Assembly (NCBI GenBank): GCA_010356995.1
Contig: ML996703.1
Span: 434,001-498,000 of the forward strand
Length of the DNA: 64,000 nucleotides
Direction: 5' to 3'
Source: Trichodelitschia bisporula
Taxonomy: Eukaryota
The notes under the pieces were generated by a model. That model saw nothing but the letters and a program-made list of their open reading frames with translations, was not told where the DNA came from and made no database searches. A program made the position numbers and the translations under genes. Of the stretch, positions 15,093 through 19,815 are shown piece after piece. The stretch's first letter is position 1. Every line of letters starts with the position of its first letter.

Positions 15093-16673
15093 GGTGTGTG
15101 TGAGAGGAGTGGTGGACGAAATCGCTGACAGAAAACGGACACAACAAGAGCACTAAAAAGCATAAGGTTAAGGCTAGCGGTGGGGCATTCTAGGTTGTTA
15201 AGATCTGGATCTTCATTCCAGGTTAAAGCATAATCGAGACCACATGGTCTGCCATCTCGTGCACGATGACGACATGGCGGTTCTTGCGAAACAACTGTGG
15301 ACGCGCTTTCCCTGTTAGGTGGCTGGTGGCATTGGTGCATGGATGGCATGAGTGCATGGATGGCTCAGGCCACTTGGCGATACTGGTACACCTTTAACTC
15401 AACTTCATGTTGCTGGCGACCTGCTCTCTGCTGCAAGTTGACTTCTTACGCATTCTTCTCACGCATCCTTCTCATATCATTCTCATGCAATCTGTATTTC
15501 CCTGCTTACACTGGCTTATACGCTTCATAACTACAGAAACGGACAAGAACATGAGGTTATCCTTTCAATGCCGGCTATCTACCTTGCTCGCAATACCATG
15601 GAGCAAGGCAACGCGTCTTTGGTGAACAGAACTTCATTTTCCTCTGATGTACTGGGATCTGTCTGCTGGTGCCCTTTAAGTTCTGTTGCTTTGGTGCAGT
15701 ACCCGTGCAAACATCTGGCCTCCTACTCTCACCTGGCTAGGATACCTTAATGGGGTGCGGGTCGCGATCACCAGCTTACTACGGTACTGCATGCCCGCCG
15801 AAGGTATACACTGGTTTGCAATGTAAGAAGTCGGACGAGGATTTGTGTTTCGTATCGGGCTTGGCTTACGAATCTCATCATGATGCCGATGGGCACTCGT
15901 GGATATGCGGAATACTGGCCGGCTACGGCTGTTCTGGTTCTATGCCGTCTTCTTTTCATCTCTTCCTCCTTTGTTCAAATCGCTTATAGCATCTCGTAGC
16001 CCTTCGGTTGTAAACCGACGTAAGCAGGGCTCGGGCTGAGAGTAATTGCTGTGTCTCAGGGCTCCAATGCTGCGGAGCTTGTGGTGATGGCTGCCCGCCT
16101 GCCGGAGGCTTGGTGAAGCAAGCAGCACGCAGCGGAGGATTTGCCAGCTGTAAGCTCAGAAGCGTATCGTCCCGGAGCAAACACGGCAGTGAGCATTCAC
16201 CACCTCGTACAGCGCCGTACAGTAGCTTGGGTTCACTAGGCGGTTCTGTCTTGATACAAACTGGCCTCATTGCAAAACTCCTCGAGGCTTAACTATTCAA
16301 TTTGCACCTCCAAGTTCCATTGCTCGCCTACCGGCCAGGGCTAGGCGACAAAGCAAGCCGCGGTATCGCGGTACTCCACAGGTCTGGGTGGTTCCTTCCT
16401 CAACTGCTAAGAACTACTCCGTACCTTCCTTCCGTTGATTGATCCCCCCTTTTTCCAGCAGCTTCCAAGAAGCAACACCTTCACTTAAATTCCTTTCTCT
16501 GCCAAATCTCTTCTTTTTCCCTTGCACAACCCTCTAAATCCTCAACTCGCCCACCCCCATTTGCTTCGTCCATCTTCTGCATCGTTCTCCTCTCTATCAA
16601 CAGAAATCCAAGTGGTAAGGCTTCGCAGCCTTTGTCCTCTACAATTCATTTACTAACGTATGACAGCTTCAAA

Positions 16674-18583
<1,910 letters not shown>

Positions 18584-19087
18584 ACGAGCACTCGTCTCTC
18601 AGCCTCAGGATAGCACTCTCACGACAGCAGCTTCTATGATGCCTTACCTCTACTTTGACATATGTCTTTAGTTTCGGGAACTTGCCGCTAGATAGTTTCC
18701 ATTGGCAATGACAGAAACTGAAGCATACATTATGAGTGAATTGTAATGATCTGTTTGGCCTCTTCTAGTCTTTCAAAGCTAAGGCCGTTCGCTGTTCCAG
18801 CGTGATGGAAGGGACCCACGACGAAGCTTTGCCGGTGCCTCACTTCAAACGTCAATTCTCTTGCACTGCTTCCATGTCATTTACACCCCTATAAAGGTCT
18901 ATCGTGCTTCATCGGTGGACGCTCTGACAAGGCAGGTACCACTTGACGTCGTCGCCTTCTCCAGTGACGCTACCTAACTGGTCCGGCCCCGCGCTCCGGC
19001 ATCGGAAGCCATTATACCCAACCTTGCCGAGCTTCTCCCTACTTCCATCCCCAACCCACAGTGCTCAAGGTCCAAAAAAGAAGAAAC

Positions 19088-19097
19088 AAAAAAAAAA
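19088..19097 (-). terminator. Pol III oligo(dT) terminator of the tRNA-Leu gene
   Basis: T10 run on the minus strand, 3 nt after the discriminator A (19101). Confidence 0.8.
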
Positions 19098-19116
19098 TAT
19101 TGAGAGGAGAGGGGTT

Positions 19117-19174
19117 CTAACAGAGGATGTTAGTATGAGTTTTTGAGGCTCAGAAGATTTCGGTGTAAACTAAC
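19117..19174 (-). other. Spliceosomal-type intron (58 nt) in the tRNA T-loop / B box
   Basis: 5' GTTAGT, branch site TACTAAC, 3' TAG; splits GGTTCG|AACCC. Confidence 0.88.
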
Positions 19175-19200
19175 CGAACCCTCGCTCTTTCGAACTGCGG

Positions 19201-19214
19201 ATTTGGGCAAGAAG
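19201..19214 (-). other. Canonical tRNA intron (14 nt) at position 37/38
   Basis: CTTCTTGCCCAAAT lies one nucleotide 3' of the TAG anticodon; removing it gives a 7-nt anticodon loop. Confidence 0.85.
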
Positions 19215-19233
19215 CCTAAACACAGCGCCTTAA

Positions 19234-19288
19234 CTGGGAATGGGGGTTAGCGGGGTACAGGGGGCGATTGTTGGAGACAACTGCTTAC
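19234..19288 (-). other. Spliceosomal-type intron (55 nt) in the tRNA D-loop
   Basis: 5' GTAAGC, branch site GCTAAC, pyrimidine-rich CCCCATTCCC, 3' CAG; inserted after the D-loop GG. Confidence 0.88.
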
Positions 19289-19335
19289 CCACTCGGCCAT
19301 CCTCCCAGTGAAGGGTTGATGCCGAAGTTGCAGGG

Positions 19336-19349
19336 TTTAAAAAATATAA
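19336..19349 (-). promoter_or_regulatory. TATA-like element about -30 to -43 from the mature tRNA 5' end
   Basis: TTATATTTTTTAAA on the minus strand within GC-richer flanks. Confidence 0.5.
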
Positions 19350-19815
19350 CCCCCTGTTGCACTAGATGGAGGGCCGCACGGGAAGGCTTGATGGTTTTGG
19401 CCGTAGATACGTTGTGCAATAGCGACAGAAACTGCCGAAAGGAGCCATCGCAGGTGTGGACTGGCTATCCAGCGGATGCGGGCAGGTGAGAGCGGTGATC
19501 GTGCTCCTGGTCCGGCATCACATCAGGCAGGTCGTCACCCGCACATCCCACCCTTCCCACAAAACACAACAGCCCTACAGTAGCCTGCCATCGTCCCTCC
19601 CGTCAAACGCGGATGGCACCTGCCACCAAACGCAGATGGCACCCGCCACCAGTTTGTTCGGGCCAAGTGCGCAACAGCCAGCCTCGCGGCTACCCGCAGG
19701 ATATCGCTTGTATTGATATAGACCGCCCACGGCGGGCCACGTCACGTCTAGACAACGTGCATATCGACATTGCCAGAGCATTATCTCGTATTTTGCTACT
19801 GCTAGTACTGCTACT

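Follow-up and report, generated by a model that had tools for sequence, protein, structure and literature searches.

In this study, we show that a transfer RNA (tRNA) gene, tRNA-Leu(UAG), in a 64,000-nucleotide (nt) stretch of Trichodelitschia bisporula DNA (contig ML996703.1, positions 434,001 to 498,000; hereafter the window, to which all coordinates refer) is an expressed gene in a genome of the filamentous-fungus type, and that its two ectopic introns are excised exactly. The gene is encoded as three exons on the minus strand (19306-19101, a 206-nt unspliced stretch), and the second of its ectopic introns cuts through the B box. In the textbook picture, the promoter of a tRNA gene lies within its coding sequence and a dedicated endonuclease takes out its introns. 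The promoter used here must be unusual, as the gene is transcribed and both ectopic introns are excised exactly even though the B box is broken. The explanation that we favor, with a probability of roughly 45%, is TATA-assisted transcription by RNA polymerase (Pol) III that makes use of the intact A box.

Excision of both ectopic introns

The exons and introns, all on the minus strand, are arranged as follows. Exon 1 (19289-19306, 18 nt), which is delimited by ARAGORN and by an RNA contig, holds the 5' strand of the acceptor stem and the start of the D arm, and its final base is the last G of the A box. Ectopic intron 1 (19234-19288, 55 nt; GTAAGC ... GCTAAC ... CAG) lies in the D loop between tRNA positions 19 and 20. 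Exon 2 (19175-19233, 59 nt) carries the 3' part of the D arm, the anticodon arm with the anticodon TAG (19218-19216), the variable arm and the 5' strand of the T stem, together with the 5' half of the B box, GGTTCG (19180-19175). Within it, a canonical tRNA intron of 14 nt (19201-19214; i(38,14) in ARAGORN) is found between positions 37 and 38. Ectopic intron 3 (19117-19174, 58 nt; GTTAGT ... TACTAAC ... TAG) lies within the T loop, where it separates positions 57 and 58 and splits the B box, and exon 3 (19101-19116, 16 nt) contains the 3' half of the B box, AACCC, the 3' strands of the T and acceptor stems and the discriminator A. When both inserts are removed by coordinate, ARAGORN calls a tRNA-Leu(tag) with a 14-nt intron at 37/38, seven acceptor pairs, the T loop TTCGAAC and the discriminator A. 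Removal of the 58-nt insert alone leads to a forced tRNA-Trp call and removal of the 55-nt insert alone to no call; ARAGORN finds no tRNA gene in the unspliced sequence or in the whole window, and Rfam at gathering score reports no family in the window. Since tRNA finders miss such genes, fungal tRNA sets and decoding inventories may be incomplete.

The removal of the introns can be followed in public sequencing data. Five public runs match part of 18950-19460, and four of them were compared over 18700-19700. In a DNA run (X1), perhaps the source of the sequence studied here, the whole stretch is covered by one contig without a joint. Two further runs, X3 and X4, are libraries from one sample of the same organism and are not mutually independent; their contigs show neither RNA ends, nor strand, nor level. 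In X3, a single 345-nt contig consists of 18851-19116, then 19175-19234, and then 19 loose letters that correspond to 19290-19308, with 19234 standing in place of 19289, that is, exon 1 and two upstream bases. The 58-nt skip at the joint 19116|19175 (reported as 'skips 58, CT..AC') has a side of 60 in X3 and of 29 in X4; beyond it, X4 runs into the first 8 bases of the exon 1 continuation and then into Illumina adapter. The exon 1 side of the 55-nt skip, at 19 nt in X3 and 8 nt in X4, is shorter than our 31-letter rule for a bridged joint. Both ectopic introns are absent from one X3 contig, exactly at the predicted borders. The 14-nt tRNA intron is retained on the contigs that lack both inserts (19175-19234 is gapless), and the fact that the ectopic inserts are gone while the canonical intron stays fits two machineries acting at different times. 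The earlier note on this DNA, which had recognized the 58-nt insert, the broken B box and the question of promoter use, named a silent locus as the outcome that would speak against it, and what X3 and X4 show instead is spliced RNA.

The X3 contig ends at position -2 with nothing further upstream, and this limit fits a short leader. Moreover, both X3 and X4 have gaps in cover at 18700-18835 and 19312-19700, both of which X1 covers. The gaps prove nothing in themselves, but they fit RNA-derived libraries and a short leader.

We took as signs of a fungal U2-type intron a GTRNGT-like 5' site, a CTRAY motif 10-20 nt upstream of the 3' end, a YAG 3' site and a length of about 45-60 nt, and all of these were found in both inserts. 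Each begins with GT and ends with AG, with a GTRNGT-type 5' site and a YAG 3' site. The branch motif reads CTAAC or TACTAAC, its branch A lies 13-14 nt from the 3' end in both, and the lengths are 55 and 58 nt. A local reference for such signals is provided by the DEAD-box helicase gene next door, in which reading frame and DEAD motif need the removal of two 44-nt inserts on the plus strand, at 17565-17608 (GTATGT..GCTAAA..CAG) and 18035-18078 (GTAAGT..GCTAAC..CAG); these introns, which rest on frame alone, share the signals of the tRNA inserts. In addition, a bulge-helix-bulge (BHB) motif, defined as two 3-nt bulges and a 4-base-pair (bp) helix, was not found at the splice sites in minimum-free-energy folds of the precursor or of the inserts with 14-nt flanks. 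Judged by these signals, we concluded that the ectopic inserts belong to the predicted class of spliceosomal introns. Our literature search, in which subscription journals were mostly uncovered, found no paper on spliceosomal introns in tRNA genes.

A diverged copy of the gene is present in X5, a contig from a soil metatranscriptome (181 nt, depth 3.1, share 0.10) that spans 19165-19295, and we used it solely as a diverged copy and not for habitat or expression. It matches the window without listed difference over exon 2, over as much of exon 1 as it covers and over the first 10 nt of the 58-nt insert, and it carries 4 substitutions and 5 indels within the 55-nt insert. Its loose end past 19165 resembles, by eye over the 30 printed letters, a diverged continuation of the 58-nt insert. 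This pattern suggests therefore a relative in which both inserts persist, the exons being conserved and the intron drifting. As a separate observation, the canonical 14-nt intron (19201-19214) also has no listed difference in X5, against 9 in the adjacent 55-nt intron, and this small tRNA intron may be under constraint.

Elements of the split gene and of other tRNA-Leu loci

The A box, TGGCCGAGTGG (19299-19289, minus strand, tRNA positions 8-19), is an exact match to the general consensus TRGCNNAGTGG and is the sole match without mismatch in the window, where 19 matches have at most one mismatch. Intron 1 begins immediately after its final base. The B box has fared differently: a contiguous GGTTCGANNCC at positions 52-62 is not present in the DNA, which reads GGTTCG|GTTAG at 19180-19170, with AACCC following only after the 58 nt of the intron, so that the cut box has 3 mismatches. 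No B box with 0-1 mismatch was found in the introns, in the 3' flank or within several kilobases (kb). With up to 2 mismatches allowed, 206 matches were counted in the window, where 212 would be expected; by this count the cut box, like the near-B-box of the variable arm with its 3 mismatches, does not rise above chance. Among the 200 of these 206 that are listed, the nearest with at most one mismatch lie at 15936 and 50388. The only 2-mismatch matches in or next to the gene are TGTTAGAACCC at 19122-19112 and one on the plus strand at 19313-19323. The former consists of the last six bases of intron 3 and the start of exon 3, with C56 replaced by A; it spans the 3' splice site, and no match at up to 2 mismatches lies wholly within either intron. 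Because the B box is cut and has no replacement with 0-1 mismatch, the standard type-2 promoter composed of A and B boxes is absent.

Two further features of intron 3 may be recorded beside its effect on the B box. The intron (19117-19174) starts with GTTAG and also ends with GTTAG. Furthermore, TGTTAG|AACCC, at its 3' end and in exon 3, reads as a B box with A instead of C56, which might be a residual TFIIIC contact or a trace of the origin of the intron.

Upstream of the gene, an A/T-only, TATA-like element, TTATATTTTTTAAA (19336-19349, minus strand), occupies -43 to -30 relative to the mature 5' end, with the TATA starting at -42. A/T-only runs of at least 13 nt occur three times in the window, and two of them flank this gene, as the TATA-like element and in the terminator region. 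The chance of a TATA start in a 21-nt window is 2.8%, and the TATA-like element is non-random. Downstream, a T10 run of the Pol III terminator type (19088-19097, minus strand) starts 4 nt past the tRNA 3' end and a second run, T6 (19074-19079, minus strand), lies 22 nt past it. The T10 run is the only T run of at least 8 on both strands of the 64 kb (128 kb of strand), and runs of at least 6 number 14 on both strands, with a chance of 0.27% in a 25-nt window. The absence of T runs of at least 4 inside the gene is uninformative, as 76% of 127-nt windows are likewise free of them.

A sequence check placed every element that the earlier note had named on the minus strand where it had put them, namely the A box, the cut B box, the 58-nt insert, the TATA-like element, the variable arm and the oligo(dT) run. 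Its statements that the 58-nt intron breaks the B box, that the A box is intact in exon 1 and that the terminator is retained were borne out by GGTTCG|GTTAG in the DNA with no 0-1-mismatch replacement in the introns or downstream, by the unique exact A box and by the T10 run at +4. Its account of the gene as a split tRNA was right as to the 58-nt insert, and it omitted the 55-nt insert (19288-19234), the T6 run (19079-19074) and the 14-nt intron (19214-19201).

Metagenome sequences were scanned for similar genes. A pattern for the D-loop intron layout (A box and GT, 30-60 nt, AG and TTAAGGCG) had 0 matches, and a pattern of 22 nt made of the variable arm and T stem found 27 loci. The variable-arm motif is required by the latter pattern, so that its co-occurrence with other features can be tested and its frequency cannot. 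All 27 loci read as tRNA-Leu, with the anticodon CAG, TAG or GAG, although several ARAGORN labels differ where the canonical intron was placed otherwise, and no second tRNA gene was found within them. The T loop is intact in 27/27 and a T-loop insert occurs in 0/27. In six of the 27, from two lineages, the A box is broken by a GT..AG insert within the D arm and the B box is left intact. With each locus oriented to match, the insert is 52 nt long and follows G13 (GTCAGT..CTGAC..TAG) in L002 (about 430-600), L004 and L023, and is 53 nt long and follows G15 (GTCCGT..CAG) in L009 (about 490-640), L014 and L018; by eye, both groups are tRNA-Leu with the anticodon CAG. Removal of the D-arm insert yields an ARAGORN tRNA call in 6/6 of these split loci; each of them shows a TATA between -36 and -32, and a T4-T5 run follows within +2 to +15.

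By blastn of their flanks, the 27 loci group into 11 lineages, two split and nine unsplit. A TATA at -45 to -25 is present in the 6/6 split loci and in the studied gene (-42), compared with 4/21 unsplit loci (L005, L006, L008 and L015); by lineage, and with the studied gene included, the count is 3/3 split versus 2/9 unsplit. A T run of at least 4 within 60 nt 3' of the gene occurs in 26/27 loci (L011 being the exception), where the longest is T6, and the T10 of the studied gene is the longest among all 28. It was also observed that the canonical 37/38 site of L005 and L016 holds unusually long inserts, of 57 and 59 nt in the ARAGORN calls, which is the size of spliceosomal introns in these fungi.

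Candidate routes of transcription

It seems to us that TATA-assisted transcription by Pol III gives the best account of the gene. Firstly, the removal of the B box from the DNA by intron 3 would leave TFIIIC without its main anchor, and the TATA-like element at -43 to -30 would place TFIIIB and its TATA-binding protein (TBP) directly. Secondly, the intact A box would be the remaining contact for TFIIIC (tauA) and would set the start just upstream of +1, and the long T10 and T6 terminator would aid release and re-initiation. The spliceosome would then act first, and twice, rebuilding the D and T loops in the RNA, and RNase P, RNase Z and the tRNA endonuclease/ligase would complete maturation afterwards. 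The 3'-extended spliced RNAs would represent a read-through fraction captured by standard libraries. In this scheme we infer the polymerase, the roles of TFIIIB, TFIIIC and the TATA-like element, the order of the later steps and the mature, charged tRNA. The intact A box, the place of the TATA and a T run of unique length speak for continued selection on the Pol III signals. In particular, the retention of T10 points to selection, because homopolymer runs decay without it and the introns are sufficiently old for a diverged relative to share them. The visible RNAs are perhaps a minority, because ordinary libraries miss precursors of about 100-220 nt with oligo-U ends.

The elements of this scheme have precedents. 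The U6 gene of yeast is described as combining a TATA and an A block with a B block located downstream, and the U6 promoters of fungi as flexible (PMC5855946). That of Schizosaccharomyces pombe is given in the same account, after Frendewey 1990, as a Pol III gene with an mRNA-type intron that holds the B block (PMC5855946), and this precedent means that Pol III transcripts can undergo splicing. The studied gene resembles the U6 genes of S. pombe and other fungi, as described there, in being a gene for a small stable RNA with an upstream TATA, an A block, a T-run terminator and a GT-AG intron to be removed; it differs in that the S. pombe B block is intact inside the intron (PMC5855946), whereas here the intron cuts the B box and none with 0-1 mismatch is found in the introns or the 3' flank, so that neither U6-type placement of the B block, in the intron or downstream, is in use. 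Moreover, Pol III is demonstrated for S. pombe U6, whereas here it is what we infer, and a tRNA product also needs the tRNA endonuclease.

In S. pombe, plants and insects, TATA-like elements are reported to be important to tRNA genes (PMC11346459). In the TATA-dependent tRNA genes of S. pombe, plants and silkworm, and of yeast in vitro, an upstream TATA at about -30 to -42 is said to aid, or to be enough for, the placement of TFIIIB, as it would here, and a TATA-like element at -42 is cited for budding yeast tRNA genes, where the TATA of the studied gene also starts (PMC11346459). The B box of those genes is intact, in contrast to the studied gene, for which any TATA dependence would be obligatory in vivo. 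The same source describes TFIIIC-independent transcription of yeast tRNA genes and of SNR6 through TATA-like elements as an in vitro finding, unseen in vivo, and recycling without TFIIIC as working for short templates (PMC11346459). A closer likeness in layout is offered by Cyanidioschyzon merolae, whose nuclear tRNA genes are described as often having A and B boxes interrupted by as many as three introns, with a TATA-like element no more than 50 bp upstream and a T-stretch downstream, and for which TATA-directed, TFIIIC-independent recruitment of TFIIIB has been proposed (PMC3978253). The studied gene, with its TATA at -42, its T10 at +4 and its interrupted B box, fits such a layout. It is unlike those genes in that C. 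merolae is described as having BHB introns and no recognisable TFC1/TFC3 (PMC3978253), whereas the host studied here presumably has TFIIIC and the introns appear spliceosomal by their signals.

Several observations weigh against TATA-assisted Pol III transcription. The 'RNA?' label of X3 and X4 is guessed, the library type is unrecorded and there is a single sample. The 3' extension on the spliced contigs occupies 18851-19100 (minus strand), reaching 18851 in X3 and 18896 in X4, so that the only RNA seen crosses both T10 and T6 and continues to about 250 nt past the tRNA 3' end and about 230 nt past T6. In X4, the depth of the tRNA body (79.3) is similar to that of the extension (48.9 + 24.9). 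No RNA ending in the T run was seen, though contigs and ordinary libraries could not display one, and no mature tRNA was observed, the RNAs seen all being 3'-extended and having the tRNA intron in place. From yeast data on U tracts, read-through of T10 and T6 by Pol III should be rare: yeast Pol III is reported to read 50-200 nt past terminators at many tRNA genes, less so with longer U tracts, and 8U tracts are given for 60% of the yeast genes with less than 5% read-through (PMC4937561). The yeast read-through products are further described as scarce, targeted for decay and capable of being adenylated (PMC4937561). Finally, the comparison of TATA elements covers 12 lineages of mixed or unknown taxa with one variable-arm/T-stem sequence, and its significance is marginal (hand-calculated hypergeometric P 0.045, or 0.09 when the TATA of L019 at -46 is counted). 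The earlier proposal that the gene relies on the TATA and A box stands in so far as the TATA is non-random and goes with 3/3 split versus 2/9 unsplit lineages.

The strongest of the alternatives, and a possibility to be taken seriously even though we would not expect it to prevail, is that the gene has moved to Pol II. TBP bound to the TATA would recruit Pol II, transcription would start just upstream of +1 and the T runs would be ignored. The product would be a capped transcript of about 450 nt or longer, spliced co-transcriptionally and probably polyadenylated, from which RNase P and RNase Z would excise the tRNA, leaving the T10 run and the A box as relics or with other roles, e.g. nucleosome exclusion. 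The TATA is followed by a C/T-rich stretch up to +1, and together these resemble fungal Pol II core promoters. The contigs lend some support to this option, which the earlier note had also raised: one spliced X3 contig runs from -2 through exon 3, T10 and T6 to 18851, the depth of the extension in X4 resembles that of the tRNA body, and the B box has been destroyed without replacement. The three types of intron are described as unrelated, with the spliceosomal ones normally in Pol II transcripts (PMC12530127), and the tRNA-Sec of Trypanosoma brucei, reported to be transcribed by Pol II, is a precedent (PMC2943599). This gene, as well as the vertebrate tRNA-Sec with its extragenic Pol III promoter, is like the studied gene in not relying on an internal promoter of A and B boxes (PMC2943599). 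However, the T. brucei gene lies inside a Pol II polycistron, whereas the studied gene is intergenic, with a TATA and a T-run terminator of its own, and is not embedded in a Pol II transcription unit; neither tRNA-Sec precedent has spliceosomal introns.

The long T run, the TATA position and the A box point to Pol III instead. Unless Pol III termination is selected for, it is difficult to account for a T10 at +4 that is unique in 128 kb of strand and exceeds the T6 maximum among the 27 related loci; the match of the A box is exact, and T runs lie directly 3' in the split loci of the two other lineages as well. Neither a cap, nor a poly(A) tail, nor Pol II occupancy was seen, in contigs that are unable to display ends or strand. 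Moreover, yeast makes read-through products with Pol III too, and their adenylation is possible, according to the account cited above (PMC4937561). If the Pol II route were nevertheless correct, one fungal nuclear tRNA would be off Pol III, made by Pol II and passing through both nuclear splicing systems, an outcome that we regard as conceivable but less likely than not.

It is improbable, in our view, that a substitute B box anchors TFIIIC with a stretched spacing between A and B boxes, either at GTTCGAA in the variable arm (19195-19189) or at TGTTAG|AACCC (19122-19112). The variable-arm sequence, GTTCGAAAG (19187-19195, minus strand), which has a 3-bp stem and a GAAA loop, was the surrogate suggested by the earlier note. 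GTTCGAA has the G53-A58 core, including C56, and in 128 kb of strand this 7-mer is found just 6 times. The 3' splice site with exon 3 agrees with 9/11 positions of the written consensus, and TFIIIC is reported to tolerate a spacing of about 200 bp from the A block to the B block in yeast SNR6 (PMC5855946). On the other side, the motif in the variable arm departs from GGTTCGANNCC at 3 positions and is without C61 and C62, and agreement with the consensus at up to 2 mismatches is at chance level in the window. The same arm is present in 27/27 loci with intact T loops, as the search pattern requires, and would thus be ancestral and not compensatory. Judged from these loci, the variable-arm motif is apparently an ordinary feature of tRNA-Leu and not compensation, and the suggestion of a surrogate there is not upheld. 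C56 is the most critical base of the B box, and the box rebuilt at the 3' splice site has A in its place; of the four free intron positions in it, 3/4 match, at a P of about 0.05 by hand estimate.

We consider it very unlikely that the gene is decaying or non-productive, with introns gained by chance, transcription and splicing that are noise, and no functional tRNA. The lack of observed mature tRNA, with only 3'-extended RNAs that bear the tRNA intron, would be expected of such a gene. Nevertheless, the two splices together give a perfect cloverleaf with seven acceptor pairs, the T loop TTCGAAC and the discriminator A, the relative in X5 has no listed difference in exon 2 and 9 in the 55-nt intron 1, as under selection for a tRNA, and the flanking TATA and T10 have been maintained. 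Least credible of all is that the tRNA splicing endonuclease, rather than the spliceosome, cuts the inserts out as BHB introns, in the manner of C. merolae or nucleomorphs: the D and T loops of C. merolae tRNAs are described as bearing ectopic introns, in genes that also have a TATA upstream and a T-stretch (PMC3978253), and contigs display junctions and not machinery, but the ends and branch motifs are of the spliceosomal type, the lengths are 55 and 58 nt, the minimum-free-energy folds place neither predicted splice-site pair in a BHB, and the contigs lacking both inserts retain the canonical 37/38 intron.

Implications and further observations at the locus

With a spliceosomal-type intron inside its B box, and contigs from which that intron is gone exactly, this gene is a natural experiment in several respects. 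It bears on how far a tRNA gene can dispense with its A/B promoter and on whether a TATA can take over in vivo, for which yeast has to date offered in vitro evidence only. It bears as well on whether U6 is alone among Pol III transcripts in reaching the spliceosome, or whether Pol II can become the polymerase of a tRNA.

The gene lies in a 1.45-kb intergenic spacer, flanked by the convergent DEAD-box helicase gene and by a divergent glyoxal-oxidase-like gene. Within 18500-19500, a search of Rfam at E up to 10 found nothing in the 3' extension and returned two chance-level microRNA matches, with E of 0.12 and 0.98; a scan for bacterial promoters and terminators, which is not relevant for a eukaryote, gave nothing. 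The ends of the extended contigs at 18851 and 18896 lie near a TGTAAAT motif, just ahead of TTT runs, and we draw no inference from this.

The length of the T run differs within the one sample. It is T10 in X3, and a second contig of X4, spanning 18896-19116, has T11 replacing T10; in X4 the main contig has T11 (depth 48.9 of 73.8). This difference may be due to slippage of the polymerase or in library preparation, and we gave it no weight. A TATAAT is present at 19012-19017 (minus strand), inside the 3' extension and about 85 nt past the tRNA 3' end, and could be a second start on the minus strand.

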